A stretch of 64,000 bases of DNA, taken from contig CANMMF010000007.1 of NCBI GenBank assembly GCA_947498985.1, positions 192,686 through 256,685 of the forward strand, in the 5' to 3' direction. The stretch's first letter is position 1; each line of letters opens with the position of its first letter. The notes below the pieces were generated by a model. That model ran no database searches. It was not told the origin of the DNA and saw only the letters and a program-made list of their open reading frames with translations. Source of the DNA: an uncultured Rhodobacteraceae bacterium (GTDB lineage: Bacteria > Pseudomonadota > Alphaproteobacteria > Rhodobacterales > Rhodobacteraceae). Position numbers and translations under genes: made by a program. Shown here piece by piece: positions 4,035 to 31,226 of the stretch.

Positions 4035-4910
4035 ATGTCCCCTGAGTGGCAGATCCAAATGAAAACCGGTCTGATTGTCAGCCTCGCCATTATCGCTCTG
4101 GTTCTGGCCGGGCTTTACATGTGGCGGCTGCGCGATCACCGGGCGGACCGTGCCGAGGCCGCGCGTCTTCTCGCGCTTGAGGCGGTCGATCCTCCGGTCT
4201 TCACCCGGAGCCTTGTTGCGGCGCTGCCGGAGCCTGCCAGGCGCTATTTTCTCTTTGTCATCAAGGAGGGCACACCGCTTCACCGGGTTGCACGGATCGA
4301 CATGCGGGGCTCGTTCGGGCTCGGAACGCGGGACGCGCCCAGCTATATGCAGATGTCGGCGACGCAGGTGCTTGCGGCGCCACACGGGTTTGTCTGGAAA
4401 ATGTCCGGAGGCTCGGGTTTCATGCGCATTTCCGGTTCCGACAGCGGCGGCTGGACGCGCTTCTGGCTGGCCGGTGTGGCCCCCGTGGCGCGCGCCGGTG
4501 GAACGCCGGATCACCGGTTGTCTGGATTTGCGCGCTACGTCTCCGAAGCGGTGTTCTGGACACCGGCTGCGGTCCTGCCGGGCCCGGGGGTGCGCTGGGA
4601 AGCGGTGGACGAGACCACCGCGCGGGTGACCATCACACATGACGGCCAGACGCAGGCGGTTGATGTGACCGTCGATGCCGAGGGCCGGCCAACTGAAGTT
4701 GTGTTGCAAAGGTGGAGCGACGCCAATCCGGACGGCGTGTTCCGGTTCCAGCCCTTCGGCGGCCATCTTTCGGAGTTTCGCGACTTCGGCGGGTTCCGGC
4801 TGCCGACCCATGTGGAGGCGGGCAACTTCTTTGGCACGCAGGCCTATTTCCCGTTCTTCATCGCCGACGTCACGGATATCCGCTTTGCCGGAGCGACCGG
4901 AGCGCGCTAA
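4035..4910 (+). CDS. membrane-anchored hypothetical protein (DUF6544-like)
   Basis: 291-aa ORF with an N-terminal TM helix (KTGLIVSLAIIALVLAGLYMW) followed by a soluble domain. It resembles the DUF6544 family as I recall it. An alternative start is ATG 4059 (MKTGL...). Confidence 0.6.
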   Translation: MSPEWQIQMKTGLIVSLAIIALVLAGLYMWRLRDHRADRAEAARLLALEAVDPPVFTRSLVAALPEPARRYFLFVIKEGTPLHRVARIDMRGSFGLGTRDAPSYMQMSATQVLAAPHGFVWKMSGGSGFMRISGSDSGGWTRFWLAGVAPVARAGGTPDHRLSGFARYVSEAVFWTPAAVLPGPGVRWEAVDETTARVTITHDGQTQAVDVTVDAEGRPTEVVLQRWSDANPDGVFRFQPFGGHLSEFRDFGGFRLPTHVEAGNFFGTQAYFPFFIADVTDIRFAGATGAR

Positions 4911-5166
4911 TGCCGCCCGGAAGATGCACCCGACACCGTCCGGGCGACGGCGCCGCCAGACATCCGATTTCGCAGGTGACGCCTTTGTCGATCCCACGCG
5001 AGCGCCGGGGGACCCTACCCAAAATCCGCGCATCCGGCGCCGGGTTTTGATGCTCCGCCCGCAAACTGCGCCTGTTTTTTCAGCATCGCATGCGCCCCTG
5101 GCCGGTTTCCGCCGCGCGGCCTTGCCTCACCCGCGGCGCTGGCGCGAGCATCGGGGGGCAGGACAT

Positions 5167-5268
5167 CTAGGGTTCCGCCTTGGCAATCTGGCAAGGGCAC
5201 TGGTCCGAGAGATGTCGCCCGAATGGCAAATTCCATCTGGTACACGGCGGGGCAAAATCCCGGGAGAG
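5167..5268 (+). promoter_or_regulatory. guanidine-I riboswitch (ykkC-yxkD leader) aptamer
   Basis: CTAGGGTTCCGCCTTGGCAATCTGGCAAGGGCACTGGTCCGAGAGATGTCGCCCGAATGGCAAATTCCATCTGGTACACGGCGGGGCAAAATCCCGGGAGAG contains the hallmark blocks CUAGGGUUCCG, GGUCCGAGAG and ACACGGCGGG..AAAA.CCCGGGAGA in the right order. Helices are visible (CCTTGCC/GGCAAGG and CCC/GGG). It sits about 90 nt upstream of the ABC binding-protein start. Confidence 0.88.
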
Positions 5269-5359
5269 CACTGCACCTCAGGCAAGGCCGCACTCTCCTG
5301 TTCCGCCACGGCTCCTTTGGTCCTCTCATCCAGGCGGAACGTCGCGAAGGGGTCTCCTT

Positions 5360-6418
5360 ATGCAAGTTCTCGGTCATATCATGGGTGGCGCCGCTGCGCT
5401 GTTGATTGGCACTGCCAGCCTCGCAACCGCGCAGGAAAAAACCGACTTTCGGGTGGCGTGGTCGATCTATGTCGGCTGGATGCCATGGGGGTATCTGGAG
5501 GCCTCCGGCATCATGGACAAATGGGCCGCGAAATATGGCATCGATATCGAGATCGTGCAGATCAACGATTATGTCGAGTCGATCAACCAGTATACCGCAG
5601 GCGCGTTTGACGGGGTCTCGGCCACCAACATGGACACGCTGTCCATTCCCTCGGGCGGCGGCGTCGACACGACCGCGCTGATTGTGGGCGACTTCTCCAA
5701 TGGCAATGACGCGGTGATCCTGAAAGGCGAGGGTACTCTGGCGGATCTTGCAGGCAAGCCCGTGAACCTGGTGGAGCTTTCGGTCTCGCATTACCTGCTG
5801 GCGCGCGGGCTGGACAGCGTGGGGCTGCGCGAGGCGGATCTCGGCAGTGTGATCAACACGTCCGACGCTGACATGATTGCCGCCTTCCAGACCGATGACG
5901 TCGAGGCGGTGGTCACCTGGAACCCGCTCGTCTCGACGATCCTCGAGGATCCGGGCGCGACCAAGCTTTTCGACAGTTCCGATATCCCCGGCGAGATCAT
6001 CGACCTGATGGTGGTCAACACCGACACGCTGGCGGCCAATCCGGATTTCGGCAAGGCGATGGTCGGGGCGTGGTACGAGGTCATGGCGCTGATGGCCGCA
6101 GGCGACGAGGCGGCGCTGAGCGCGATGGCCGAGGCGTCGGGCACGGATCTCGACGGCTACAAGGCGCAGCTTGCCTCAACCGAGATGTTCTACGATCCGG
6201 CAGATGCGGTGGCCTTCACGCAAAGCCCGGCCTTGCCGGAAACGATGGTCAGCGTGGCCGGGTTCCTCTTCGACAAGGGCATCCTTGGTGAAGGCGCGCC
6301 GTCTGCGGATTTTGTCGGTGTGGCCTACCCGGACGGCTCGGTCACCGGGGATGAGAACAACGTCCAGTTCCGCTTTGACACCACCTACATGCAGATGGCC
6401 GCCGACGGCGCGTTGTAA
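5360..6418 (+). CDS. ABC transporter substrate-binding protein, NitT/TauT family (candidate guanidine-binding protein), 352 aa
   Basis: Trimmed to ATG 5360 (GAAGGGG upstream). Signal peptide MQVLGHIMGGAAALLIGTASLATAQE. The body resembles NitT/TauT-type periplasmic binding proteins. It is the first gene after the riboswitch. Confidence 0.8.
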   Translation: MQVLGHIMGGAAALLIGTASLATAQEKTDFRVAWSIYVGWMPWGYLEASGIMDKWAAKYGIDIEIVQINDYVESINQYTAGAFDGVSATNMDTLSIPSGGGVDTTALIVGDFSNGNDAVILKGEGTLADLAGKPVNLVELSVSHYLLARGLDSVGLREADLGSVINTSDADMIAAFQTDDVEAVVTWNPLVSTILEDPGATKLFDSSDIPGEIIDLMVVNTDTLAANPDFGKAMVGAWYEVMALMAAGDEAALSAMAEASGTDLDGYKAQLASTEMFYDPADAVAFTQSPALPETMVSVAGFLFDKGILGEGAPSADFVGVAYPDGSVTGDENNVQFRFDTTYMQMAADGAL

Positions 6419-6436
6419 GCGCGGCGCGGCACGGCC

Positions 6437-7255
6437 ATGGGCATGAGACTGATCAATCGCCAGCCGGGGGTGGCGCTGAAGACGGCGCTCACCATCCTGC
6501 CGTTCCTCGTGGCGTTCATCGCCTACTGGATCGGCTCGGAGATCCGGCTGGCCGAAAATCCGTCCGACAAGCTGCTGCCCTCGCCCGCCAGGATCGCCGC
6601 CACCGCCGAGCGGCTCTTTACCGAACCCGACCGCCGGTCGGACCGCATTCTGCTCTGGCACGACACCGGTGCAAGCCTGATGCGGCTGGCGCTGGGCGTC
6701 GGCATATCCGCGGTGCTGGCCACGCTTGTCGGTCTGCTGATCGGGCTCTTGCCGCATATGCGCGCGACGCTCGCGGGCTTTGTGGCGGTGCTGTCGATGA
6801 TCCCGCCGCTGGCCATCCTGCCGATCCTCTTCATCGTGTTCGGACTGGGTGAGTTGTCCAAGGTGGTGCTGATCATTGTCGGCATCCTGCCGTTTCTCAT
6901 CCGCGATCTGAGCCAGCGCGTTCTCGACATCCCGCGCGAGATGATCGTGAAGGCAGAGACGCTGGGGGCGTCCTCGCTGGTGATCGCGCTGCGGGTTGCC
7001 CTGCCGCAGCTTCTGCCGCGGCTCATTCAATCGGTGCGGCTGTCACTCGGCCCGGCCTGGCTGTTTCTCATCGCCGCCGAGGCCATCGCGTCGGAGGTGG
7101 GTCTTGGCTACCGCATCTTTCTGGTGCGCCGGTTTCTGGCGATGGACGTGATCCTCACCTACGTGCTCTGGATCACCTTGCTGGCGTTCTTGATGGACCT
7201 CGCGCTGCGCACGCTCTCGCGCAAGGCATTCCCCTGGACGGAGGCAAGCCTGTGA
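6437..7255 (+). CDS. ABC transporter permease (NitT/TauT family)
   Basis: 272-aa polytopic membrane protein with a BPD-type permease signature region (...EAIASEVGLGYRIF...). Confidence 0.85.
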   Translation: MGMRLINRQPGVALKTALTILPFLVAFIAYWIGSEIRLAENPSDKLLPSPARIAATAERLFTEPDRRSDRILLWHDTGASLMRLALGVGISAVLATLVGLLIGLLPHMRATLAGFVAVLSMIPPLAILPILFIVFGLGELSKVVLIIVGILPFLIRDLSQRVLDIPREMIVKAETLGASSLVIALRVALPQLLPRLIQSVRLSLGPAWLFLIAAEAIASEVGLGYRIFLVRRFLAMDVILTYVLWITLLAFLMDLALRTLSRKAFPWTEASL

Positions 7256-8019
7256 GTTTTGTCACCGCAGAGAATGTATTTCAGTCCTACGGCAACCGGC
7301 CGATCCTTGAGCGGGTGAACCTTGCGGTGGATGAAGGCGCGTTTGTCTCGATTGTCGGCGCGTCGGGATGCGGCAAGTCGACCTTTCTACGCCTGTTGCT
7401 GGCGCAGGAACAGCCGACACGCGGAGAGATCCGGATCGCAGGTGCCCCGCCCGCCGCGGAGCCCGGCCTCGACCGGGGGGTGGTGTTCCAGAAATACTCC
7501 GTCTTCCCGCATATGAGCGTGCGCGACAACATCATCGCAGGTGAAAGCTTTCGCACCGTCACGGGTGTCTTCCGGGGCGCCCAAAAGGCCGCGGCGCGGG
7601 AGCGCGCGCAGGCAACGCTGGCGCGCATCGGTCTCGATCACGTCGCGGACCACTACCCCGCGACCCTGTCGGGCGGCATGCAGCAACGCCTCGCGATCGG
7701 GCAGGCGCTCGCGGCCAAGCCTCGGATCCTGCTGCTCGATGAGCCGTTCGGCGCGCTCGATCCCGGCACGCGCCTGTCGATGCATGACTTCCTGACCGAA
7801 TTGCGCCGCGAAACCGCGATGACGGTCTTCATGGTCACCCATGACCTCGAAGAGGGGTTCAAGCTCGGCGACCGGGTTCTGGTCTTCGACAAGCCCCGGT
7901 GGGACCCCACCGAGCCAGATGCCTTCGGCGCAACCATCACCTACGATTTCGACGCCAGAGACGGCGGCATCCCGTTTCAACGCAGTGAGGAGCACACATA
8001 TGTACGTCGCCCCGCCTGA
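7252..8019 (+). CDS. ABC transporter ATP-binding protein
   Basis: Walker A GASGCGKST, signature LSGGMQQR, Walker B LLLDEP. The GTG start overlaps the permease stop (GTGA). GGAGG lies upstream. Confidence 0.9.
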   Translation: MSFVTAENVFQSYGNRPILERVNLAVDEGAFVSIVGASGCGKSTFLRLLLAQEQPTRGEIRIAGAPPAAEPGLDRGVVFQKYSVFPHMSVRDNIIAGESFRTVTGVFRGAQKAAARERAQATLARIGLDHVADHYPATLSGGMQQRLAIGQALAAKPRILLLDEPFGALDPGTRLSMHDFLTELRRETAMTVFMVTHDLEEGFKLGDRVLVFDKPRWDPTEPDAFGATITYDFDARDGGIPFQRSEEHTYVRRPA

Positions 8020-9244
8020 CCGCACGCGGTCACACCACCCCAGGGACCTGCGCCACGACGCGCGCCGGGCCCACCATCCGGACCTGACCAGGCTGCAGGG
8101 CTGGCGGTCGATGAAGGCCGAGGCCGACCTGCCCGAAGGCCGTTGGGACGAAGAGCGGCGCTGGGCGCTGCGCATGGGTCTCACCGGGGCCGACAGCATC
8201 GAGGACAAGTCCATTCCCACCTTCGCGCGCGGAGAGCTGCCGCATTACGCCGGGATCAACACCTTTCTCAAGGCGCCCTACGCCGAGGACGTCACCGAGG
8301 TGAAGGACTATGACGCAACCGTGCTCGGGATCCCGTTCGACGGCGGCACGACCTACCGCCCGGGCACCCGCTTTGGCCCTCAAGGGGTGCGCAAGATCTC
8401 CGCGCTCTACACGCCCTACAATTACGAAATGGGTGTCGATCTGCGCGAGCAGATGACGCTCTGCGATGCGGGCGACGTGTTCACGATCCCGGCCAATCTG
8501 GAAAAATCCTTCGATCAGATCAGCCGCGCGGTGAGCCACGTCTTTTCGTCCGGCTCGCTGCCGGTGATGATCGGCGGCGACCATTCCATCGGGTTTCCCT
8601 GCGTGCGCGGCATTGCCGAATGCACGTCGAAAAAGATCGGCATCGTGCATTTCGACCGGCACGCCGACATTCAGGAAAAGGATCTCGACGAGCGCATGCA
8701 CACCACGCCGTGGTTTCACTCCACCAACCTGCCAAACGTGCCCGCGCGCAACCTCGTTCAGGTCGGCATCGGCGGCTGGCAGGTCCCCAGAGAGGCGGTC
8801 AAGGTCGCGCGCGAGCGCGAGACCAACATCATCACCATGTCCGACATGGAGGCGATGGGCGTCGACAAGACCGCCGAAATGGCGCTGGAGATGGCGTGGG
8901 ACGGCGTCGACATGGTCTACATGTCCTTCGATATCGACAGCATCGATTGCGGTTTTGTGCCGGGCACGGGCTGGCCCGAACCCGGTGGTTTCCTGCCGCG
9001 AGAGGCGCTGGCGCTGGCCTCGAAGGTCGCCGCCGAAGGCATTTGCGGCATGGAACTGGTCGAGGTCTCGCCGCCCTACGACACGTCCGACATCACCGCG
9101 CTGATGGGCACAAGGGTAATCGTGGATGTGCTGGGCAGCCTTGTTGCCTCGGGCAATCTGGGCAAGCACAAGGCGCATATCGACAAGCCCGTCAGCATTC
9201 CGCATGGCGCATTCGAAGGAAAGCGGTGGTCCAATGCCACATGA
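8000..9244 (+). CDS. arginase/agmatinase/ureohydrolase-family hydrolase (candidate guanidine hydrolase, GdmH-like), 414 aa
   Basis: ATG 8000 has GAGGAG 8 nt upstream. The metal-site motifs of the arginase fold are present: IGGDHSIGF, HFDRHADI, SFDIDSIDCGFVPGTG. The N-terminal ~37 aa are His/Arg-rich (RSHHPRDLRHDARRAHHPD) with coding-like third-position GC. An alternative start is ATG 8111. Confidence 0.85.
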   Translation: MYVAPPDRTRSHHPRDLRHDARRAHHPDLTRLQGWRSMKAEADLPEGRWDEERRWALRMGLTGADSIEDKSIPTFARGELPHYAGINTFLKAPYAEDVTEVKDYDATVLGIPFDGGTTYRPGTRFGPQGVRKISALYTPYNYEMGVDLREQMTLCDAGDVFTIPANLEKSFDQISRAVSHVFSSGSLPVMIGGDHSIGFPCVRGIAECTSKKIGIVHFDRHADIQEKDLDERMHTTPWFHSTNLPNVPARNLVQVGIGGWQVPREAVKVARERETNIITMSDMEAMGVDKTAEMALEMAWDGVDMVYMSFDIDSIDCGFVPGTGWPEPGGFLPREALALASKVAAEGICGMELVEVSPPYDTSDITALMGTRVIVDVLGSLVASGNLGKHKAHIDKPVSIPHGAFEGKRWSNAT

Positions 9245-9662
9245 CATCGTCGGCGGTCAAATCGGCCACAATCACGCGCATGATCACCTGCGCAGTCACC
9301 TCAAGCCCGAGGATGAGGCCGCGGAGCTGCAGGTGCTGGCCGCGCAATTCATCGACGGGTTCGTCGCCGCCAAGGACAAGATGTCCTATCTGCGGCTGGC
9401 CGGCGTGCCGCTGGAACGCCCCGAGCCGGGGGGCGGCGCGATGATGAAGCTTGTGGACGTGCAACTGAGCACCGAATGGCAGGTCGGCACGGCTTCTCCG
9501 TCCTTTGGGTCAAGGGAGCTGAGCTATCTGCCCTATCCGGGAGAGATGGTGACCGAACGCACCAATCTGGGGTTTGTCTACGTGTCGCTGGACAGCAAAC
9601 ATGTGGTCGATCTGCGCAGCTTCCTGCATGACCGCCACGCGCATGAGGACGGCGCCGGTTAG
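9234..9662 (+). CDS. His-rich hypothetical protein, 142 aa (candidate metallochaperone)
   Basis: ATG 9234 overlaps the hydrolase stop by 11 nt. His clusters sit at both ends (GHNHAHDHLRSH ... HDRHAHEDG). I recognise no family. Confidence 0.6.
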   Translation: MPHDIVGGQIGHNHAHDHLRSHLKPEDEAAELQVLAAQFIDGFVAAKDKMSYLRLAGVPLERPEPGGGAMMKLVDVQLSTEWQVGTASPSFGSRELSYLPYPGEMVTERTNLGFVYVSLDSKHVVDLRSFLHDRHAHEDGAG

Positions 9663-10290
9663 GCCGCGCGCGTCGGGTTCGAACGCCGTGTCGGACATGC
9701 CCAGCGGGTCGAAGATCTCGGCCTGGCAGAACTCGACGATGGCGCGGCCATCCGCTTTCCCGACCACTTGTCCCGGCCAGTCGATGCTTGTCCCCTATCC
9801 CCAGCGCGTGCCCGGATCGGACATCAGCGGGTTCATCAGCGACGCCTTCGCCCCGGAGTGGATCGGCCTCGCCCCGGTCACTTCCAGGTATTTCGCCATG
9901 TCGGCGTTCCAAAACTCGTATTCCAGACTGCTGGTAAGGGTCGCGAGGTTCCGGATCGTGGCGGTTGTGTTCCGGGCGCGCAGTCTCCGGCGTGTCGCCA
10001 TCCCAGCCATCCAGAATCTCAAGCTCGTCCAAGGCGGGCAGGATCTCGGCAACGGGTCTGTCCATCGACAACTTGCCCTGGTCGATCAGGATCATCGCGG
10101 CCACAGAGCCCACCGACTTGGTCATCGAGAAGATGCGGAACGCCGTGTCTTCCCCGGCGGCGCGCCCTTCGGAGGCCTGACCGGCCGCCCCGGAATAGCG
10201 CACCCCGTTGGTGTCGGCGGCCATGGCCAGGACAAAGGGGACATCGCCCGACGAAACGGCCGCCTTCAGAACATCATCCATCCCTGACAT
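9663..10290 (-). pseudogene. serine hydrolase (class C beta-lactamase/esterase family) pseudogene
   Basis: The N-terminal part is intact and carries the SxxK motif (FSMTKSVGSVAAMILIDQG). There is a frameshift near 9990: the text continues in another frame as RLRARNTTATIRNLATLTSSLEYEFWN. An in-frame TAG lies at 9795-9797. Homology stops at ...PLGMSDTAFEPDAR, exactly at the end of the neighbouring gene (9662), so roughly the C-terminal half is missing. Confidence 0.75.
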
Positions 10291-10538
10291 CACATCCTGC
10301 CTCACCTTGCCCGGCTCAGTGTCTCCGCAGAGGTGCCGTGCGTCACTGGCACCTTGCCGCCGGTCGCGGGCGCGGCGGGGTGCCCGTCGGCCGTTGTTTC
10401 CAAGGTCGTGTGGCCCGGAGACGGCGGACCGGATGGACGGCGCTCGGCCGGATCACGCGAACCGGTCACCGGCCAAGGGCCAAACCGGTGCATGCGCGCC
10501 GCCATACTTTGCGCATTCACGCGACAGGCCCACGCGAG

Positions 10539-10816: not shown

Positions 10817-11515
10817 TCAGCGTGCGTCGGAAAGAAAACTGCGGATCGCCTGCGCGTCGATCCGGGCGCTCTGATGCGCCTCGGGACGTGTCCCGGGGGC
10901 CAGCGCGCGCGCCACCTTTTCGTATTCCTCAAGGTAGTTGGGCGGCAGCTTGTGCGCGATGCCCTGATGGCAGTCGATGCAGGTCATGCCCTGATCGATC
11001 GCGCGCTGGTGCTCCGACCCGGCGCGGACCTCCTGCATGGTGAAATCCATGTATTCGAACGCATGGCAATTGCGGCATTCGCGGCTGTCGGAGGCCTTCA
11101 TCTTCTTCCAGACCGCCATTGCCATCTTGGTGCGCCGCGCCTCGTATTTCTCGGCGGTGTCGATGCTGCCGGTGATCTCGTAGAAGATGTCCTTCACCGC
11201 GATGGCCTTGGCCTTCATCTTGTGGTTCCACTCCTTGGGCACATGGCAGTCAGAGCACACCGCCCGCACACCGGAATGGTTGTTGTAATGCACGGTCTCG
11301 CGGTATTCACCGAGGTTGGTCTCCATGCTGTGGCAGGACACGCAGAATTCCTCGGAATTGGACGCCGCCACCGACCAGTTGAATCCGCCCCAGAACAGGA
11401 TACCCGCCATGAACCCGGCGATCAGCACGAACCCGACGCTGAGCACCGATGACGGGGTCCAGAACCAGTCCCAGATGCGGCGCAAGGCACCGCGCGTGTC
11501 GTTAGGGTCGGCCAT
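10817..11515 (-). CDS. napC: NapC tetraheme cytochrome c quinol dehydrogenase
   Basis: N-terminal TM anchor plus four CxxCH motifs (CVSCH, CSDCH, CRNCH, CIDCH). Confidence 0.92.
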   Translation of the reverse strand: MADPNDTRGALRRIWDWFWTPSSVLSVGFVLIAGFMAGILFWGGFNWSVAASNSEEFCVSCHSMETNLGEYRETVHYNNHSGVRAVCSDCHVPKEWNHKMKAKAIAVKDIFYEITGSIDTAEKYEARRTKMAMAVWKKMKASDSRECRNCHAFEYMDFTMQEVRAGSEHQRAIDQGMTCIDCHQGIAHKLPPNYLEEYEKVARALAPGTRPEAHQSARIDAQAIRSFLSDAR

Positions 11516-11541
11516 GGGGAGCCCTCCTTCTTATGTCCGGG

Positions 11542-11979
11542 TCAATTGTCGGGCGAGGCGCGGAAGATGTTGTTCACAAGGCTCGGGGCATCGACCTGCG
11601 GCACATGGCACTGATTGCAGAAATACCGGGTGCCCGCGATGTGATCGAGCTCATTGCCGTCGCGGTCGAGATAATGGGTCATCGACAGGGTCGGTGCGTT
11701 GCGCTCTCCGGCCTTGGTCCAGTCATGGCAGCTCAGGCACTGGTTGGCGCGCAGATCGATCTGGTATTGCTCGATGGAATGCGGGATCAGCGGCGGCTGC
11801 TGGCGGTAGTTGCGCTGCATGCGCCGCTCGACATTCTGGTAGGCCTTCCCGGGCACAACCGGATCATCCACCGCGGCACCCCGCAAAGAATAGACATCCG
11901 AGGTTTGGGCAACGGCAAGGCCGCCAGCCGCCAGAAGCGTCGCAAGCACGATATGGCTCAGTCTGATCGGCGTTTTCAT
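11542..11979 (-). CDS. napB: NapB diheme cytochrome c subunit
   Basis: Signal peptide and two CxxCH motifs (CLSCH, CNQCH). 145 aa. Confidence 0.9.
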   Translation of the reverse strand: MKTPIRLSHIVLATLLAAGGLAVAQTSDVYSLRGAAVDDPVVPGKAYQNVERRMQRNYRQQPPLIPHSIEQYQIDLRANQCLSCHDWTKAGERNAPTLSMTHYLDRDGNELDHIAGTRYFCNQCHVPQVDAPSLVNNIFRASPDN

Positions 11980-12045
11980 GAGACGATTCCCTTTGTTGTC
12001 ATGCCGCCTGGTTGTCCGGCGCCGGTGGTAGATCTGCGAGGCCGG

Positions 12046-12906
12046 TCACGGCGTCGTCGAACCGAGGGTGAATTTGAAGACGTCCATCGCGCACACGTCG
12101 ATGCAGCGGCCGCAATTGGTGCAATCGGGAGAGAGGACAAGCGGCGAGGTGCCGGGCTTGCCTTTCAGCGCGGGCGAGATGACCTGGTTTTCCGGGCAGA
12201 CATGGTAGCAATCCATGCAGTCGTCGCAGGCGGCCCGCGCGGGCGCGCTGACGCGCAGAACGGATTTGGTGCCGACCAGCCCGTAAAACGCGCCGACCGG
12301 GCAGAGATGCCCGCACCAGCCGCGCCGGGCGACCACCAGATCGAAGACGAAGATCAAGAGGACCAGCGCCCAGACAAACCCCATGCCGAAGATCAGCCCG
12401 CGGTGCAGCATCGTGACCGGGTTCACGGCTTCCCAGGCGATGGTGCCGGTGAGACCAGAGACCACGAGCGCCGCGCCGAGCAGCCAGAGCCGCGTGCCGC
12501 GTCTGGGCTGCCAACCTTTCGGCAGGCCAAGGCGCTTGTGCAGCCAGAAGGCGCCATCCGTCACCGGGTTGATCGGGCACACCCAGGCGCAATAGCTCCG
12601 CCCGCCAAGAAGCGCGTAGGCCGCCAGAACGATCCCGGCACCGATCAGCGCGGTCAGTTCGGGCCAGTGCCCGGCGACAAGGCTCTGGGCGGCGACGAAC
12701 GGGTCGGTGAGCGGCAGGATGTTCAGCGTGAGCGACCCCGCCAGCGTGCCTTGGGTGATCCAGAGGCCAAACCACGGGCCGCTCAGGAACAGCGCAAGAA
12801 AGAAGAGCTGGCTCGCGCGGCGCAGCAGCAGGTAGCGATGCGCGCTCAGCCAGCCTTTTGTCTCGCGGGCCTCGGCGCCGGCCGGAGAATGCGTGCGCGC
12901 GCTCAT
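12046..12906 (-). CDS. napH: NapH membrane-bound ferredoxin-type quinol dehydrogenase
   Basis: Four TM segments and Cys clusters (CPINP, CGHLCP, CxxCxxCxxxCP twice). Overlaps the napG stop (ATGA). Confidence 0.88.
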
Positions 12907-13721
12907 TGGCCTGCCCCGTCAAGCCGGAACGCGGGCTCGAACCCGCCTGGCGCCACCAGGTTGTCGGTGCCCGGGCCGGGCAGCCGGTCAGGCAGGTCGA
13001 TCACACCCTCGACAAGCGGCGCGCCGCGGGCGTCCTTTTCCTCCCAGCCGCGGCGGTAGTGATCGGCCGTTTCCGCGCGCGCCAGCCGCACCGGCAGCAC
13101 TTTGATCGCCGCTTCGGGCAAGACGCAGCTGTGCTCGCATTTGCCGCAGCCGGTGCAATGTTCCGCATGCACGGTGGGCGCAAAGGTCGCGTGATGGCCC
13201 GAACGTGAGTTGTGCGAGGCCTTGAGCGTAATCGCCTCGTCGATCACCGGGCAGACCCGGTAGCAGACATCGCAGCGCAGCCCGAGAAAGTTGAGACAGT
13301 TTTCCTGATCGACCAGAACCGCGACGCCCATCTGCGCGTCGTCGATATCCTCCAGCGACGCGTCGAGCGCGCCGGTCGGGCAGGCCGCGACGCAGGGGAT
13401 GTCCTCGCACATCTCGCACGGGACATCGCGCGCGGTGAAATAGGGCGTGCCCGTGGCCGCGCCATCGATGCCCAGTTCGGCCAGTTTCAGTGTGTCGTAA
13501 GGACAGCCGCGCATGCACAGGCCACAGCGGATGCAGGCCGACAGGAACGCGTCTTCGTCAAGCGCTCCGGGCGGGCGGATCGCGTCTGCAGGCAGCGCGC
13601 GGGCATCCCGGGCGAGATAGGCCAGCGCAGAGCCCGCAAGCACGCAGCCGCCCGCCGCCCGCGCCGTGTCCGTGAGGAACCGGCGGCGGCTGGCAGAGCG
13701 CAGAGTGTCGAGCATGGGCAT
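12903..13721 (-). CDS. napG: NapG periplasmic ferredoxin-type protein
   Basis: Trimmed to ATG 13721 ([18 protein letters not shown], a Tat signal). Four 4Fe-4S Cys motifs. Confidence 0.88.
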
Positions 13722-13746
13722 CGCTTGGTCTATTCCCCGGACCCGA

Positions 13747-16251
13747 TCAGGCCCGGACCACCCGGCAGGCGCATTTCTTGAAATCGGTCTCTTTCGAGAT
13801 CGGGCAGGTGGCGTCGAGCACAAGCTTGTTGGTCAGCTGTCCCTCATCGAACCACGGCATGAACACGACCCCCGGCGGCATCTTGTTGCGACCGCGGGTT
13901 TCGACGCGGCTCAGAACCACACCGCGACGGGTCGAGATCTCGATCTCCTGTCCGCGTCGCACACCGCGGTCACGGGCGTCATCGGGATGCATGTAGACCA
14001 CCGCCGCCGGGAAGGAGCGGTGCAGCTCCGGCACGCGGCGGGTCATCGAGCCCGAATGCCAGTGCTCCAGCACCCGGCCGGTCACAAGCCAGAGGTCATA
14101 TTCCTCGTCGGGCATCTCGGCAGGCGGCTCGTAGGGGGCAAAGATGATGTTGGCGCGCCCGTCGGGTTTGCCGTAAAACCGAACGCCTTCGCCTTCGGGC
14201 ACATACGGGTCATAGCCTTCGCGGAAGCGGTAGAGCGTTTCCTGCCCGTCCACCACGGGCCAGCGCAGCCCGCGCGCGTTGTGGTAGACATCGAACTCGG
14301 CAAGATCATGCGCCTTGCCGCGCCCGAACTCCGCGTATTCCTCGAACAGCCCCTTCTGGACGTAAAAGCCGAAATCCTGGCTTTCCTGGTTGTTGAAGCC
14401 TTCGGCGACCTCGCTCACCGGGTATTTGTCGACCGTGCCATTTGTGAACAGCACCTCGTAGAGCGTCTTGCCGCGCAGCTCGGGCATTTGCGACAACAGC
14501 TCCTCGCCCCAGGCCTCTTCGGTGGTGAAGCGCTTGGAGAACTCCATGACCTGCCAGAGATCCGACCGGGAGTCGCCCGGGGCGTCGACCTGCTGGCGCC
14601 AGAATTGCGTGCGCCGCTCGGCATTGCCGTAAGCGCCCTCCTTCTCGACCCACATGGCGGTGGGCAGGATCAGATCCGCGGTCATCGCGGTGACCGTGGG
14701 GTAGGGCTCAGAGACGGTGATGAAATTTTCGGGGTTCCGGTAGCCCGGGATCCCCTCCTCGTTCATGTTGGGTGCCGCTTGCAGGTTGTTGTTGCACTGC
14801 ACCCAATGGCAGTTGAGCTCGCCATCCTTGAGTTTGCGGTGCTGCAACACGGCGTGAAAGCCGGGCTTGGACGGGATGGTGCCCGCCGGGACACCCCAGG
14901 CGGTCTCGCAGATCTCGCGGTGGGCGTCGTTCATCACCACCATGTCGGCGGGCAGACGGTGGGCGAAGGTGCCCACTTCGCGCGCGGTGCCACAGGCCGA
15001 CGGCTGTCCGGTGAGCGAGAAGGGCGAGTTGCCGGGCTCCGCGATCTTTCCGGTCAGCAGGTGGATATTGTAGAGCAGCCCGTTGACCCAGGAGCCGCGC
15101 GTGTGCTGGTTGAACCCCATGGTCCAGAGGCTCATGACCTTGCGGTCGGGATCGGCATATTGCTTCGCGAGCCGCTCGAGGCTCGCTGCGGGCACACCCG
15201 ACAGCCCGGACACCTTGTCGAGCGTGTAGTCGCTGACGGCCGCGGCGTATTCGTCAAAGCTCATCGGGTCGAGCTTGCCGTGCTTGCCTTCATGCGAGGG
15301 GTTCTCGGCGGCCTGCTCGAGCGGGTGCGTGGGCCGCAGCCCATAGCCGATATCGGTGGCCGTGCGGGTGATGTTCACGTGATTGGCGACGAACTCCTCG
15401 TTCACCGCACCGGTCTGGATGATGTAATTCGCGATGTAGTTCAGGATCGCGAGATCGGTCTGCGGAGTGAAAATCATGCCGTTATCGGCCAGCTCGAAGG
15501 ACCGGTGCTCGAAGGTCGACAGCACATGCACCTCTGCACCGGGCTTGGTCAGGCGCGTGTCGGTCAGGCGCGACCAGAGGATCGGGTGCATCTCGGCCAT
15601 GTTCGAGCCCCAGAGCACAAAGGTGTCGGCATGCTCGAGATCGTCATAGCAGCCCATCGGCTCGTCGATGCCGAAGGCGCGGATGAAGGCGGCCACGGCA
15701 GAGGCCATGCAGTGGCGCGCGTTGGGGTCGATATTGTTGGACCGCAGCCCGGCTTTCATGAACTTGGCGGCGGCATACCCTTCCCAGACGGTCCATTGAC
15801 CGGACCCGAAGATGGAGACCGCGCTCGGCCCCTTGTCGCGCAGCGCCGCCTTCCATTTCTCGGCCATGACGTCAAAGGCTTCGTCCCAGCTGACCGGCTC
15901 GAAACGTCCGTTCTTGTCGAAGACACCGTTCGACTTGCGCAGCAGCGGCGTGGTCAGACGGTCTTCGCCATACATGATCTTGGACAGGAAATAGCCCTTG
16001 ATGCAGTTCAGCCCGCGGTTCACCGGGGCATCGGGGTCGCCTTGCGTGGCCACGACGCGGCCCGCCTTGGTGCCGACCAGAACCGAGCAGCCGGTGCCGC
16101 AGAACCGGCAGGCCGCCTTGTCCCAGCGGATATCCGATCCCGTCGTCTGCGCCGCCGCCTGACCTGTCGCGAGCGGGATACCGGCAGCGGAGGCCGTCGC
16201 GGCGGCGGCGCTGGCCTTCAGAAAGCTGCGGCGCGAATTAGATATGGTCAT
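13747..16251 (-). CDS. napA: NapA periplasmic nitrate reductase catalytic subunit
   Basis: Trimmed to ATG 16251 ([24 protein letters not shown], a Tat signal). N-terminal CRFCGTGC 4Fe-4S motif. 834 aa molybdopterin oxidoreductase. Confidence 0.95.
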
Positions 16252-16540
16252 TGTGCTGGCCTCCGTTTGGGCGGGAAAGAGGTGACGGCCGGGCGGCATC
16301 GGGGCTGCCGGTCTCTTCGAAATGGTGATAGGTCAGCGTCAGCGAGACGACGCCCGGGATCTGGTGCAGATCCATGATGATTTCGGAGGCAAACCGGGTC
16401 GCGGTGTCTTCGACGACAACCACGATCCGCCCGTCCTCGTTCTGCGCGTGCACTTCCGCGCCCTCCGTGGCGTCGATCGCGTGGATCGCTGCCGCGGCGC
16501 TGTCGGGCACGACATGCACAAGGCATCCGCAAATATTCAT
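16238..16540 (-). CDS. napD: NapD chaperone
   Basis: [10 protein letters not shown]... is the typical NapD N-terminus. Overlaps the napA start and the napF stop. Confidence 0.85.

Positions 16541-26241: not shown

Positions 26242-26245
<4 letters not shown>
25544..26245 (-). CDS. hutC: histidine utilization repressor, GntR/HutC family
   Basis: Trimmed to ATG 26245, overlapping the hutF stop (ATGA). Winged-helix region LIPNEADLAVEFGCARSTVNRALRSLAESGVL plus a UTRA-like C-terminal domain. Confidence 0.88.
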
Positions 26246-27606
<1,361 letters not shown>

Positions 27607-27617
27607 CGTCGCTCCGC

Positions 27618-27646
27618 TTGACAGAATAATATGTGTGCACATAAAA
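27618..27646. promoter_or_regulatory. hutF/hutI divergent control region (promoter-like hexamers and a palindrome)
   Basis: The 73-bp AT-rich gap contains TTGACA (27618-27623), a 17-nt spacer, then ATAAAA. The spacer carries the palindrome TGTGCACA (27634-27641), a plausible HutC operator position. Confidence 0.4.
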
Positions 27647-27679
27647 ACATTAAGAACAGGTTTTATCAAGCGAGTCGCA

Positions 27680-28876
27680 ATGATGCTCCTCACCAATGCC
27701 CAGATCGCCACGTTGCAGGACGCTCAAGGCTACGGGCTGGTGGAGGACGGCGCCATCGCCATCGAGGGCGAGCAGATTGCCTGGGTCGGACCCGCCGGCG
27801 AGGTTCCGGCGGCGTATCATGGCGGCACGGTCCATGATCTGGGCGGCCGCCTCGTGACCCCGGGCTTGATCGACTGCCACACCCATGTGGTCTTTGGCGG
27901 CAACCGCGCTGCCGAGTTCGAGCAGCGCCTCAACGGGGCGAGCTACGAAGAGGTCGCGCGCGCCGGTGGCGGGATCGTCTCGACGGTGACCGCGACCCGC
28001 GCGGCCTCTGACGATATGTTGCTGGCAGAGGCGCTCACACGGGTGGACGCTCTGATCGCCGAGGGCGTCATGCTGATCGAGGTGAAATCCGGCTACGGGC
28101 TTGACAGAGAGACGGAGCTCAAGATGCTCCGCGTCGCGCGACAGCTTGCGCAGGCCCGACCGGTCGAGATCCGGACCAGTTTTCTGGGAGCCCATGCCGT
28201 GCCGCCGGAGTACCGGGGCAGTCCCGACGCCTATATCGACGACGTCTGCATCCCGGCCCTGCGCGCCGCCCATGCCGAAGGTCTGGTGGATGCGGTCGAC
28301 GGGTTCTGCGAGGGCATCGCGTTCGACACGGCCCAGATTGCGCGCGTCTTCGACGCGGCGGCGGCACTTGGCCTGCCGGTCAAGCTTCACGCCGAGCAAT
28401 TGTCGAATATCGGCGGCACGCGGCTCGCTGCGCGCTATGGCGCGCTCAGCGCCGATCATGTGGAATATGCCACCGACGAAGACGCCGCGGCGCTGGCGCA
28501 GTCCGGTACGGTGGCGGTGGTGCTGCCCGGCGCGTTCTACACGCTGCGCGAAACCCAGGCGCCGCCGATACAGGCCTTTCGCGATCACGGCGTGCCGATG
28601 GCGCTGGCCACCGACTGCAATCCCGGCTCGTCGCCGCTGGCGTCGGTGCTGCTGAGCATGAACATGGCCTGCACGCTCTTCCGCATGACCCCGCTGGAGG
28701 CGCTGCTGGGTGTGACCGTCCATGCCGCCAGAGCGCTGGGCGTCGCGGATCGCGGGCGGATCACGGCCGGAGCGCGCGCCGATCTTTGTGTCTGGAACGT
28801 GACGCATCCGGCAGAGCTTGCCTACCGTATCGGCTTCAACCCTCTGCACAAGCGCGTCTTCAGGGGGGCGCCATGA
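27680..28876 (+). CDS. hutI: imidazolonepropionase
   Basis: Trimmed to ATG 27680. Motifs [31 protein letters not shown]. Confidence 0.93.
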
Positions 28877-30414
28877 CCGTCACGCTCATACCGGGCTCTG
28901 CCACGCTTGCGCAGTTGCAGGACATCTGGTCGAGCCGGAGCGCCGTGGTGCTGGACCCGTCCTCCCATGCCGGGATCAGGGCCGCACATGCGCTGGTGTC
29001 ACAGGCGGCAAATGGCGACGCGGCGGTCTACGGGGTGAACACCGGCTTTGGCAAGCTCGCCAGCGTCAAGATCGCGGCCAAGGACGTGGCCAAGCTTCAG
29101 CGCAACCTGATCCTGTCGCATTGCTGCGGCGTGGGGGAGGCCCTGGACGACGCCACCACCCGGCTGATGATGGTGCTCAAGCTTCTGTCGCTGGGGCGCG
29201 GCGCGTCCGGCGTGGCGATGACCACGGTCGAGACCATCGAGGTCATGCTGGCCCGCGGCGTGATCCCGGTCATCCCGGCCCAGGGCTCCGTCGGCGCGTC
29301 CGGCGATCTGGCGCCGCTTGCGCATATGGCCGCGGCGATGATCGGCGAAGGTGAAGCGTTTTTCGACGGTCAGCGGATGCCATCGGGGGAGGCGCTGTCA
29401 AAGGCCGGGATCCCCCCGATTGTGCTGGGCGCCAAGGAAGGCCTCGCGCTGATCAACGGCACGCAGTTCTCCACTGCCTGCGCGCTTGTCGGGCTCTGGG
29501 GTGCGTGGCGCAATGCGGCGAGCAGCGTGGTGACGGGTGCGCTCTCGACCGATGCGATCATGGGATCCACCGCGCCGCTGCAGGACGCCATCCACACCCT
29601 GCGCGGTCACGCGGGCCAGATCGCCGTCGCGCGCGCCCAACGCGCGCTGATGCACGGATCGCAGATCCGCGAGAGCCATGTGGAGGGCGACACACGGGTG
29701 CAGGATCCCTACTGCATCCGCTGCCAGCCGCAGGTGACGGGGGCGGCGATGGACCTCTTGCATTTCGCCGCGCGCACGTTGGAGACCGAGGCGAATGCCG
29801 TCACCGACAACCCGCTTGTGCTGGTCGATGACGGTCTCATCGTCTCCGGCGGCAATTTCCATGCGGAGCCGGTGGGCCTTGCCGCCGATCAGATTGCGGT
29901 CGCCATTTCAGAGATCGGCGCAATTGCGCAGCGTCGCGTGGCGCTGATGGTGGACCCGACCCTGTCCTTCGATCTGCCGCCGTTCCTGACACCCGATCCG
30001 GGTCTGAACTCCGGCCTGATGATTGCCGAGGTGACCACCGCCGCGCTGATGAGCGAAAACAAGCATCTGGCCAATCCCTGCACGACGGACAGCACACCGA
30101 CCTCCGCCAATCAGGAGGACCACGTGAGCATGGCCGCACATGCGGCACGACGGCTGGAGCGGATGAACCGGAACCTGAACGTGATCCTGGGTGTCGAGGC
30201 GATGTGCGGCGCGCAGGGGATCGAGTTTCGCGCGCCGCTGCAGACCAGCGACGCGTTGAAAGCGGCGATGGCGGTCCTGCGCGCGGATGTGCCGACCGTG
30301 GTCGAGGACCGCTATCTGGCGCCTTCGATCGAAGCGGCAACCGCGCTTGTCGAAACCGGCAGACTGGCCGCGGCGGTGGAGCTTCCGTCCTTTGTTCTGG
30401 GGCACGCCGGATGA
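28873..30414 (+). CDS. hutH: histidine ammonia-lyase
   Basis: ATG 28873 overlaps the hutI stop. MIO-forming [14 protein letters not shown] motif. 513 aa. Confidence 0.95.
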
Positions 30415-31226
30415 CCCCGGTCGTCACATGTCAGGGCACGGGGCCGGTGGTGCTTGGCCTGCCGCATACCGGGACATTCCTCCCCGACGACATCGAAGCA
30501 CGGCTGAACGAGACCGGGCGCGCGCTCTCAGATACCGACTGGCATGTCGAGCGTCTTTATGACGGGCTGCTGGACAACGTCACAACCGTCCGCGCGACTT
30601 TTCACCGCTATGTCATCGATGCCAATCGCGATCCCGCGGGTGTCAGCCTCTATCCGGGGCAGAACACCACCGGGTTGGTGCCGGTGACGGATTTCGACGG
30701 AAAGGCGATCTGGAAGACGCCGCCCACGTCCCGGGAGGTCGACGCCCGCCGCAGCGCGTTTCATGCGCCCTATCACGCGGCATTGCAGAGCGAACTGGAC
30801 CGCGTCCGGGCCCTGCATGGCGTGGCGATCCTGTTTGACTGCCACTCGATCCGGTCCAACATCCCGTTTCTGTTCGAGGGCCCCTTGCCCGATTTCAACA
30901 TCGGCACAAACGATGGCACAACCTGCGCGCCCATCATCGAGAGCCTCGTGGCGCGTGCCTGCGCTGAGGTCATCGACCCTGAAGACCCGCCCTACAGCCG
31001 TGTCATCAACGGCCGGTTCAAGGGGGGCTGGACCACGCGGCACTATGGCCAGCCCGACACCGGCATCCACGCGATCCAGATGGAACTGGCCCAATCGACC
31101 TACCTCAAGGCCGAACACGCGCCGTGGGAATACGACAAGGACAAGGCGGCCCCGCTGCGCCGTCGCCTGAGCCGCATCCTGACCGACCTCGACGCTGTTG
31201 CCCCCAGCCTGAAAGAGAGACCATGA
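30411..31226 (+). CDS. hutG: N-formylglutamate amidohydrolase
   Basis: ATG 30411 overlaps the hutH stop. FGase-family text ([25 protein letters not shown]). 271 aa. Confidence 0.88.

Follow-up and report, generated by a model that had tools for sequence, protein, structure and literature searches.

A small histidine-rich protein encoded directly after guanidine hydrolase genes of Alphaproteobacteria is a candidate nickel accessory factor

Guanidine hydrolase (GdmH) was described in 2021–2022. It requires nickel and, in cyanobacteria, the accessory proteins GhaA and GhaB (PMC12704784; PMC12186494); statements on GhaA/GhaB rest on later papers citing Funck et al. 2022 (Nature). Apart from guanidine hydrolase and the related metformin hydrolases, no arginase-fold enzyme is, to our knowledge, known to require nickel. 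Operons for the Ni-dependent metformin hydrolase are laid out as hypA-hypB-mefH-hupE, and co-expression of HypA/HypB-type chaperones was needed to activate these nickel hydrolases in E. coli (PMC11399263). For comammox Nitrospira, which are without those chaperones, the literature calls the mechanism of nickel loading unclear; the N. inopinata guanidinase expressed in E. coli without a chaperone showed partial nickel occupancy, and its N-terminal extension is structural in role (PMC11410670). Nickel insertion into urease, hydrogenase, CODH and cyanobacterial GdmH uses a GTPase.

The sequence studied, termed the window, was the whole stretch of 64,000 nt from an uncultured Rhodobacteraceae bacterium (GCA_947498985.1, CANMMF010000007.1, positions 192,686–256,685, forward strand). 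It is 65% GC and contains many long spurious ORFs. The operon runs from a guanidine-I riboswitch through ABC importer genes to gdmH, the fourth gene, and a small His-rich ORF. Features of the operon and its immediate downstream context were as follows.

5156..5268, forward strand: guanidine-I (ykkC) riboswitch aptamer at the operon head (Rfam RF00442, 71.9 bits against a gathering score of 63, full-length match)
5360..6418, forward strand: periplasmic substrate-binding protein of a NitT/TauT-type ABC importer (NCBIfam TIGR03427 ABC_peri_uca, E = 1.5e-159; Pfam NMT1, NMT1_2)
6437..7255, forward strand: ABC transporter permease (Pfam BPD_transp_1, E = 1.4e-16)
7252..8019, forward strand: ABC transporter ATPase (Pfam ABC_tran, E = 5.7e-33)
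8000..9244, forward strand: GdmH-type guanidine hydrolase, 414 aa, arginase fold (Pfam PF00491, E = 1.1e-75)
9234..9662, forward strand: small His-rich protein, 142 aa, candidate nickel accessory factor of GdmH (homologues, AlphaFold model, synteny)
9665..10305, reverse strand: frameshifted, 3'-truncated beta-lactamase-family (serine hydrolase) pseudogene, context only (Pfam PF00144 fragments in two frames)

The start of the substrate-binding protein at ATG 5360 was inferred from the signal-peptide-like MQVLGHIMGGAAALLIGTASLATA in its translation, and the importer is presumed from operon context to import guanidine. The 3' end of the ATPase gene overlaps the hydrolase start by 20 nt. The pseudogene abuts the end of the operon; PF00144 profile positions 2–85 were matched in ORF 9349..10305 and positions 156–189 in another frame (ORF 9510..9767), and the profile was not matched past about position 189 of 329. 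A terminator scan found no intrinsic terminator directly after the small ORF.

The hydrolase was assigned to the GdmH type because arginase-fold motifs are present, guanidinases were nearest in the PDB and RF00442 heads the operon. Its best match among PDB sequences was 7esr/7oi1 (Synechocystis Sll1077, i.e. GdmH; E = 6.7e-165, 552 bits), followed by 9fek (N. inopinata guanidinase; E = 1.1e-160, 538 bits), and the next best, proclavaminate amidinohydrolase, reached only 177 bits. Scores fell under the NCBIfam agmatinase cut-offs. The arginase-type metal-ligand motifs GGDHS, DRHxD and SFDIDSxD were invariant in the hydrolase alignment (A4). The window hydrolase thus resembles Sll1077 and the N. 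inopinata enzyme over about 350 aligned residues (E = 1e-160 to 1e-165) and shares their metal-ligand motifs, but differs from both solved guanidinases in a 37-aa N-terminal extension that aligns to neither and in a C-terminal HK..IDKPV...WSNAT tail. The product is a close relative of Ni-dependent GdmH; that it hydrolyzes free guanidine to urea and ammonium in a Ni2+-dependent manner is inferred from sequence and riboswitch context.

8000..8110, forward strand: 37-aa N-terminal extension of the hydrolase with RSHHP and R-x-HHPD motifs (Shine-Dalgarno sequence, length conservation, substitution pattern)

ATG 8111 was considered as the hydrolase start, which would make the extension an artefact. 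This was ruled out because the extension is conserved at the protein level, shows a coding pattern and is preceded by a strong Shine-Dalgarno sequence (GAGGAG, 8 nt upstream of ATG 8000). In tblastn, alignments of the hydrolase began at residue 1 in 69 of 78 loci, and the extension was exactly 37 codons long in 69 of 72. Codon diversity was 0.52 at position 3 and 0.24 and 0.22 at positions 1 and 2, a coding-type pattern. Five His occur in the 37 residues (P = 0.002). R-x-H-H-P-D was kept in all 24 alphaproteobacterial sequences aligned, distant ones included; across 26 aligned sequences, R23 and P27 were invariant and H25, H26 and D28 were conserved at 90% or more. The extension did not align to the chains of the cyanobacterial or the Nitrospira enzyme in the PDB.

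The small protein is listed in the ORF table as 9126..9662, from an earlier ATG; the internal ATG at 9234 yields MPHDIVGG.... Its parts were delimited as follows.

9234..9305, forward strand: N-terminal tail, residues 1–24, with the MPHD start, a GHN motif and the cluster HNHAHDHLRSH (pLDDT 45–49 for residues 1–20)
9306..9620, forward strand: predicted structured core, residues 25–129, comprising two helices, a six-stranded sheet and the start of a C-terminal helix (pLDDT 87–97)
9621..9662, forward strand: C-terminal His cluster FLHDRHAHEDGAG and stop codon (sequence)

The original prediction, made from the sequence alone, placed the ORF at 9234–9662 with an 11-nt overlap of the hydrolase stop, whose ORF ends at 9244, and described His clusters at both termini around a core of about 110 aa that could not be assigned to any family. 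The start and overlap held, with MPHD at the N-terminus in 119 of 120 close homologues and the GHN motif in all 120. The His clusters also held: the protein has 10 His and no Cys, with nine His in 54 tail residues and one in an 88-residue core (binomial P = 5e-6 against a background of 2.4% His in the 33 other window proteins). The core length was corrected to about 100 aa. Its lack of an assignable family was upheld by Pfam, NCBIfam, PDB sequences and Foldseek: no match was obtained in Pfam-A or NCBIfam at E ≤ 0.1 or in PDB sequences (searched with the single sequence and with a 117-sequence profile), and a Foldseek search of the PDB with the AlphaFold model gave nothing significant. The top Foldseek rows, a domain-swapped cystatin and a COMM domain (E 0.2–0.7, TM ≤ 0.26), are no evidence of a relationship. 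The model itself was confident overall (pLDDT 82.9), with low confidence for about the first 20 residues and helix 1 beginning at residue 25.

The core was aligned across 100 representatives. In alignment A3, F39, D48, P59, P102 and Y116 were invariant, and the window protein meets the family signature AF[IV]xGFxxAxD[KP]xxFLRLAG[IV]P...L[KL]L[VL]xV...VGxxxPxFG...LxYxPLP...FVY. The core contained no conserved cluster of His, Cys, Asp or Glu. A GxxxxGK[ST] P-loop motif was not found in the small protein, and because it has no Cys, a HypA-type CxxC zinc site is impossible.

We define the family as that of the GdmH-associated His-rich protein; it is large, otherwise unnamed and seen here only in Alphaproteobacteria. 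Three homologue searches yielded 1446, at least 1972 and 224 clusters, the 1446 homologues all being unnamed; at 50% identity the family forms 131 clusters. Homologues extend down to about 30% identity with length and core conserved. His-rich tails are family-wide, with His making up 17–20% of tail residues and 0.3–2% of core residues. Subfamilies A and B carry the His-rich tail at the N-terminus, subfamily C at the C-terminus, and at least four His in a tail were counted in 100% of A, 100% of B and 77% of C. A C-terminal tail with at least four His occurs in 22% of close homologues against 74% of subfamily C. A His-rich tail is missing from 23% of subfamily C and from some divergent members (e.g. 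P0134 and P0142). Nearly all members have a His among their first three residues (MPHD, MH.., M[DT]HE), the N-termini being MPHD in the window protein, MH[RQD] in subfamily B and M[DT]HE in subfamily C. That the tails persist in three subfamilies at 30–40% identity while changing termini suggests selection for His content itself. No description of the small protein was found in the literature searched, the coverage of which was incomplete, so this is absence of evidence only.

Synteny with gdmH was strict. The small gene immediately follows a GdmH-type gene, of about 400 aa, in 78 of 78 Roseobacter-group loci having upstream sequence, and in 10 of 10 distant members (about 30–40% identity) sampled from Ancylobacter, Pseudolabrys, Sinorhizobium, Azospirillum, Magnetospira and MAGs. 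Among the members examined, none was found away from a GdmH-type arginase-fold gene. The stop/start overlap is 11 nt in 56 of 79 loci and 4 nt in two (L086 and L087). Besides the window's own, a guanidine-I riboswitch was found upstream in 8 of 9 related loci tested; the Ancylobacter unit consists only of riboswitch, gdmH and small gene. The gene right after the small one in Sinorhizobium and Azospirillum encodes a HupE/UreJ nickel permease (PF04955, E = 6e-45), an order that mirrors the metformin hydrolase operons (PMC11399263); HupE is present in only these two loci. There is no conserved downstream accessory gene, the commonest downstream gene being common to only 9 of 87 loci. Magnetospira has a ZnuA-family gene about 1.4 kb further downstream than the small gene. 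Actinobacterial GdmH-like genes occur without the small gene.

Measured against these data, the other claims of the original prediction fared well. The His-rich, coding-like hydrolase extension of about 37 aa that it described is real and conserved. Its statement that Ni-insertion accessory genes are absent held for the 33 window genes scanned, none of which is a HypA/HypB/UreE/UreG-type or other Ni-related gene (eight small or terminal ORFs lay outside the scan). The co-occurrence with arginase-family genes and ykkC riboswitches that it proposed to check was met, every member examined following a GdmH-type gene, and one finding that would have refuted it, an ORF not conserved beside such hydrolases, was not borne out. 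The suggestion of an undescribed maturation factor for arginase-fold enzymes is supported in narrower form, for alphaproteobacterial GdmH-type hydrolases: a partnership with arginase-fold enzymes generally was rejected because of the actinobacterial genes that lack the partner. All computationally testable predictions were met, and a role in metal binding or maturation remains an inference. The permease adjacency in two lineages goes beyond the original prediction and adds a link to nickel.

We therefore favor, by a modest margin, the reading that the product of the small ORF is an accessory protein dedicated to Ni-dependent GdmH, in which nickel binding, contact with GdmH and nickel transfer are all inferred. 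It is supported because the hydrolase is a relative of GdmH, which needs nickel and, in cyanobacteria, GhaA/GhaB; because of the strict synteny, the riboswitch, the His-rich tails and the HupE/UreJ adjacency; and because no known nickel chaperone gene was present among the window genes scanned. Under this reading, guanidine would open the riboswitch and the small protein would be made together with the enzyme through the overlapping stop and start codons. The core of about 100 aa, without conserved metal ligands, would serve as a docking or oligomerization module for the GdmH hexamer, the docking site possibly being the enzyme's conserved N-terminal R-x-HHPD extension. Ni2+ would be captured by the flexible His-rich tail, which has the N-terminal His and the GHN motif, and then handed over to the binuclear active site. 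The small protein would replace the cyanobacterial HypA/HypB-like GhaA/GhaB pair, with no GTPase encoded in the operon. A bolder version, in which this protein of unseen fold and the R-x-HHPD extension together form a self-contained, GTPase-free nickel relay that loads the binuclear centre of alphaproteobacterial GdmH, is held only tentatively, and we lean against it.

Several points weigh against an accessory role. Experimental data on metal binding, interaction or activity are lacking. Since the core has no conserved ligand cluster, any metal site must rest on the low-complexity tails and could be adventitious, and these tails are lacking in the divergent members and the fraction of subfamily C given above. 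The operon encodes no GTPase, unlike established nickel insertion systems. The partial nickel occupancy reached without a chaperone (PMC11410670) means that a chaperone is perhaps not strictly required. In subfamily A, MPHD is encoded within the hydrolase stop overlap (ATGCCACATGA), so its conservation may partly reflect double constraint.

Four other explanations were weighed. An unlikely one is that the protein is a nickel store, buffer or uptake-coupling protein without specific docking to GdmH or directed transfer, whose tails keep Ni2+ close to the enzyme or accept it from HupE or a similar permease, so that more nickel is available locally or toxicity is avoided. The varying length and position of the tails, as in Hpn- or HspA-type storage proteins, the neighboring HupE/UreJ in two lineages and the lack of a GTPase speak for it. 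However, a general buffer would be expected also near urease or hydrogenase genes or alone, whereas all members examined follow gdmH, and simple storage has no need for a well-conserved, confidently folded core. We also doubt that the protein belongs to the GdmH hexamer as a non-catalytic subunit, structural or regulatory, or helps to assemble it, acting on stability, folding or control of activity, with the tails secondary. Here the overlapping stop and start would, by inference, allow coupled, roughly stoichiometric production; the core is without metal ligands; the top, non-significant Foldseek rows are obligate-dimer or domain-swapped folds (cystatin, COMM); related ureohydrolases can need a second subunit, as in MefH alpha/beta (PMC11399263); and the N. 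inopinata extension has its structural role (PMC11410670). Against this, His-rich tails persist in three subfamilies at 30–40% identity with shifting termini, the HupE link fits nickel, and the GdmH enzymes of Synechocystis and Nitrospira assemble into active hexamers with no subunit of this kind (PMC11410670).

That the protein serves another metal such as Mn2+, Co2+ or Zn2+ as a metallochaperone or selectivity factor, for instance by loading the second site or preventing mis-metallation, is considered very improbable. In its favor, each subunit in the N. inopinata guanidinase structure holds one Ni and one Mn (PMC11410670), Mn is the usual metal of arginase-family enzymes, and Magnetospira has the ZnuA-family gene near the small one; Zn and Co, too, are bound by His-rich stretches. 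However, His-only ligand sets prefer Ni, Zn and Co over Mn, characterized GdmH is Ni-dependent (PMC12704784; PMC12186494), and HupE/UreJ is a Ni/Co permease family. Finally, a spurious ORF in GC-rich DNA or a pseudogene remnant might be proposed for a window of this composition, with its many long spurious ORFs and with minus-strand ORFs overlapping the region. This can be virtually dismissed, since homologues number in the thousands, reach down to about 30% identity and keep both length and core, the AlphaFold model is confident, and position and orientation are conserved.

The small protein is new in that it matches no known fold and is not named by any of the databases searched, and the family offers a concrete candidate for nickel loading in Alphaproteobacteria, including abundant marine Roseobacter-group bacteria and rhizobia. 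If the accessory reading is true, it would be a new type of metallochaperone, apparently GTPase-independent; thousands of 'hypothetical proteins' could be annotated, and recombinant guanidinases might be made more active. If the relay reading were true, it would be a third, non-homologous route of Ni-enzyme maturation beside the HypA/HypB and UreDEFG types, and would provide a tool for making guanidinase or metformin-type hydrolases in fully active form in heterologous hosts.

Compared with the Synechocystis GdmH system, the window operon likewise has guanidine-I riboswitch control and an ABC importer, but the hydrolase's partner is the small His-rich protein and not GhaA/GhaB. Like GhaA/GhaB and the metformin-operon HypA/HypB, the small protein has its gene beside that of a Ni-dependent ureohydrolase, controlled by a guanidine riboswitch or as part of an operon, and the operon can also encode a HupE permease (PMC12704784; PMC11399263). 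Unlike these pairs of chaperone and GTPase, it is a lone small protein, related to them neither in sequence nor in fold: it is without the HypA domain (PF01155), CxxC zinc site and Cys of HypA/GhaA, and without a Pfam match, P-loop motif or NTPase fold as in the SIMIBI GTPases HypB/GhaB/UreG/CooC. HypA has a Met-His-Glu nickel site, which the Met-His start of subfamily B recalls; this is a resemblance only, without binding data. The ATCUN (amino-terminal Cu/Ni) motif calls for a free N-terminus, then X-X-His, without Pro in second place; the window protein (M-P-H) does not fit it because its Pro at position 2 is incompatible, and subfamily C (M-D-H, M-T-H) fits it formally.

UreE is a small soluble protein encoded with its nickel enzyme, often with a structured core and a variable His-rich tail; it has a conserved metal-binding His at the dimer interface and works with the UreG GTPase. 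The small protein likewise has a His-rich tail beside a structured core, a feature common to unrelated nickel proteins that does not define membership, but it has no UreE_N or UreE_C match (best Foldseek E-value 0.2, TM ≤ 0.26), its core is without a conserved His and no GTPase is nearby. Ni2+ is also bound by Hpn, HspA, the SlyD C-terminal tail, the HypB N-terminal His stretch and CooJ, and the low-complexity His-rich segments of variable length and position are like theirs. Whereas those are purely low-complexity or are tails on known domains (FKBP, GroES, GTPase), the tail described here is carried by a conserved core of unrecognized fold, and its gene is tied to one enzyme gene.

Positions 5156-9662 of the window form a single plus-strand operon, with a broken gene downstream:

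5156-5268, plus strand: guanidine-I (ykkC) riboswitch aptamer (RF00442, 71.9 bits)
After the riboswitch, plus strand: NitT/TauT-type ABC importer, comprising substrate-binding protein (TIGR03427, E = 1.5e-159), permease and ATPase
8000-9244, plus strand: arginase-fold hydrolase (PF00491, E = 1.1e-75)
9234-9662, plus strand: small His-rich ORF, 142 aa
9665-10305, minus strand: broken beta-lactamase-family (serine hydrolase) gene, downstream of the operon

In the beta-lactamase-family gene, Pfam profile positions 2-85 and 156-189 fall in different frames (a frameshift), and the gene breaks off near profile position 189 of 329, precisely at the end of the small ORF, which suggests that the operon was inserted into or beside it. 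Upstream of the operon are a LodA-type L-lysine epsilon-oxidase homologue (PF17990/PF18417; 793-3168, minus strand) and a DUF6544/DUF6920 protein (4035-4910, plus strand). A likely periplasmic nitrate reductase cluster occupies 10817-16299 on the minus strand; Pfam was applied only to its molybdopterin oxidoreductase (13747-16299), and the NapC-, NapB-, NapH- and NapG-like ORFs were judged by translations alone. Histidine-utilisation genes lie at 26242-32893: a HutF-like amidohydrolase (26242-27711, minus strand), histidine ammonia-lyase (28786-30414) and urocanase (31124-32893).

When compared with PDB sequences, the hydrolase matched Synechocystis Sll1077 (GdmH; 7esr/7oi1) as its top solved relative (E = 6.7e-165), followed by Nitrospira inopinata guanidinase (9fek; E = 1.1e-160). 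Because these matches far exceed those to agmatinases and guanidino-acid hydrolases, it is very likely a GdmH-type guanidine hydrolase, an identity inferred from sequence alone. Its ATG at 8000 is preceded by a GAGGAG Shine-Dalgarno sequence at 8 nt. The 37-aa N-terminal extension, which the original prediction had described as His-rich with coding-like codon usage, is coding and conserved at the protein level: alignments begin at residue 1 in 69/78 loci, the same 37 codons are present in 69/72, and variation at third codon positions (0.52) is about twice that at first (0.24) and second (0.22) positions. In the solved cyanobacterial and Nitrospira chains nothing aligns with the extension. An R-x-H-H-P-D motif occurs in all 24 aligned alphaproteobacterial GdmH sequences, distant ones included, and two Rubrobacter sequences without a small-protein partner have G-K-P-D or G-P-P-D at that place. 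Roseobacter-group GdmH carries an additional 15-aa C-terminal tail, IPHGEFEGKRWSNAT (window 9190-9244; columns 401-422 of the GdmH protein alignment), that is missing from the other aligned alphaproteobacterial sequences. Since the final codons of this tail and the small gene's MPHD start overlap, each conserved end places a constraint on the other.

The mechanically called small ORF begins at 9126; ATG 9234 yields MPHD, the start of 119/120 close homologues. Every element predicted for this ORF was present. In 56/79 related loci the small gene again overlaps the hydrolase stop by 11 nt, and such overlapping stop and start codons are consistent with translational coupling. The predicted His clusters at both termini were confirmed: of the 10 His in the protein, which lacks Cys, 9 lie in 54 tail residues and 1 in the 88-residue core (tail enrichment P = 5e-6; His = 2.4% across 33 other window proteins).

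For neighborhood analysis, 80 genome loci were retrieved, all Rhodobacteraceae, 78 of them with upstream sequence. Pairing was strict: the GdmH gene lay directly upstream of the small gene in 78/78, and 10/10 distant members (nine from contig look-ups, plus Sinorhizobium fredii NGR234 pNGR234b) directly followed a ~400-aa arginase-family gene, as the original prediction of co-occurrence required. Full-length loci have the order substrate-binding protein, permease, ATPase, gdmH, small gene; the Ancylobacter unit is minimal (riboswitch, gdmH, small gene). The guanidine-I riboswitch, whose co-occurrence had also been proposed, precedes the operon in 8/9 loci tested, placing the small gene under riboswitch control. 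No downstream gene is conserved, the commonest being common to just 9/87 loci, which leaves the small gene as the final conserved member of the operon. The actinobacterial GdmH-like genes of Rubrobacter and Nonomuraea have no small-protein partner. On a Rubrobacter indicoceani plasmid (locus L088, 5935-13113), the GdmH-like gene, with N-terminus MGAGHHHPE and no small His-rich partner, has in its vicinity a sodium:solute symporter, a formamidase and a urease operon that includes accessory genes. In six Roseobacter-group loci (L001, L018 (7610-8008), L029, L039, L047, L048) a ~133-aa CMD/AhpD-like carboxymuconolactone-decarboxylase gene (PF02627) separates gdmH from the small gene and uses the same overlapping start position; in L014 and L026 the two are ~915 nt apart, and the interval holds a gene for a ~292-aa protein of metallo-beta-lactamase fold (PF00753, HHHTDH motif).

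A single-sequence search returned 1446 clusters at E <= 1e-3, each a "hypothetical protein" without a Pfam domain, and exhaustive phmmer against 1.8 billion representatives gave 131 clusters at 50% identity. The family splits into subfamilies A (Roseobacter group, including the window member), B (Hyphomicrobiales: Ancylobacter, Pseudolabrys, Sinorhizobium; at least 1972 clusters) and C (Rhodospirillales: Azospirillum, Magnetospira; 224 clusters). They share a ~100-aa core in which F39, D48, P59, P102 and Y116 are invariant; the family alignment shows no cluster of conserved His or Cys there. An AlphaFold2 model built from 117 diverse sequences was confident (mean pLDDT 82.9; core blocks 87-97), except in the N-terminal ~20 residues and last few, and predicts two helices, a six-stranded sheet and a C-terminal helix. 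Searches of Pfam-A, NCBIfam and PDB sequences, the last with both a single sequence and a profile, gave no match, and Foldseek against the PDB found nothing better than E = 0.2, TM 0.26. The protein therefore belongs to no recognised family, HypA, HypB/UreG, UreE and SlyD included, in line with the earlier failure to assign its core; none of the databases searched gives its own family a name, and no description was found in the literature searched. In metagenomic gene calls P0198, P0215, P0227 and P0147 the small protein is joined to a C-terminal or internal part of GdmH; frameshifts, deletions or chimeric assembly may explain these calls, which do not count as evidence of true fusions.

Across the family, tails contain 17-20% His and the core 0.3-2%. 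Subfamilies A and B, which retain a GHN motif, carry the His-rich tail at the N-terminus (median 8 and 13 His), and subfamily C carries it at the C-terminus (median 7 His); nearly every member has a His within its first three residues (MPHD, MH.. or M[DT]HE). Because His-richness survives at 30-40% identity while switching protein ends, the tails are probably under selection for composition, again judged from sequence alone.

Characterised GdmH is Ni-dependent, and cyanobacteria co-encode the HypA/HypB-like GhaA/GhaB (PMC12704784; PMC12186494); in the operons of the related metformin hydrolases the gene order is hypA-hypB-mefH(alpha)-mefH(beta)-hupE (PMC11399263). As originally predicted, no HypA/HypB/UreE/UreG-type gene was found in the operon or the 33 window genes scanned. 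A HupE/UreJ Ni/Co permease (PF04955, E = 6e-45) directly follows the small gene in two lineages, Azospirillum sp. ST 5-10 (L086, 8424-8957) and S. fredii NGR234 pNGR234b (L090, 7677-8264); neither the window nor the Roseobacter-group loci yielded a HupE. In the layout gdmH, small gene, hupE, the small gene is therefore the sole candidate for the HypA/HypB role of the metformin operons.

We lean, with no experimental data, towards the small protein serving GdmH as its own, dedicated accessory factor for Ni. For this maturation-factor idea the gene, pairing, His tails and riboswitch held; Ni binding and transfer remain inferred. The core would dock on the GdmH hexamer, possibly at the conserved HHPD extension, and the flexible His-rich tail would bind Ni2+ and hand it to the active site, a delivery that would need no dedicated GTPase. 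Against this reading, no experimental datum supports it, the core lacks conserved metal ligands, and His tails are missing in some divergent members (P0134, P0142 and P0150, low-GC-looking sequences, have none at either end). To our knowledge, no established Ni insertion system lacks a GTPase, and N. inopinata guanidinase reaches partial Ni occupancy without any chaperone (PMC11410670); both also count against it.

Other roles were weighed against the same evidence. Storing or buffering Ni locally, or coupling to uptake, is an unlikely role for the protein, as is that of a structural or regulatory subunit that handles no metal; acting on another metal, as its chaperone or selectivity factor, is less likely still. 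A spurious ORF is all but excluded and already refuted: this is a real gene of a large family.

How guanidinase is loaded with Ni without HypA/HypB-type chaperones has been called unclear (PMC11410670). Ni metallochaperones that bear His-rich tails are an already familiar type. The small protein has no sequence or fold relationship to them. The inferred selection for composition in its tails resembles that of the Ni-binding tails of known chaperones.
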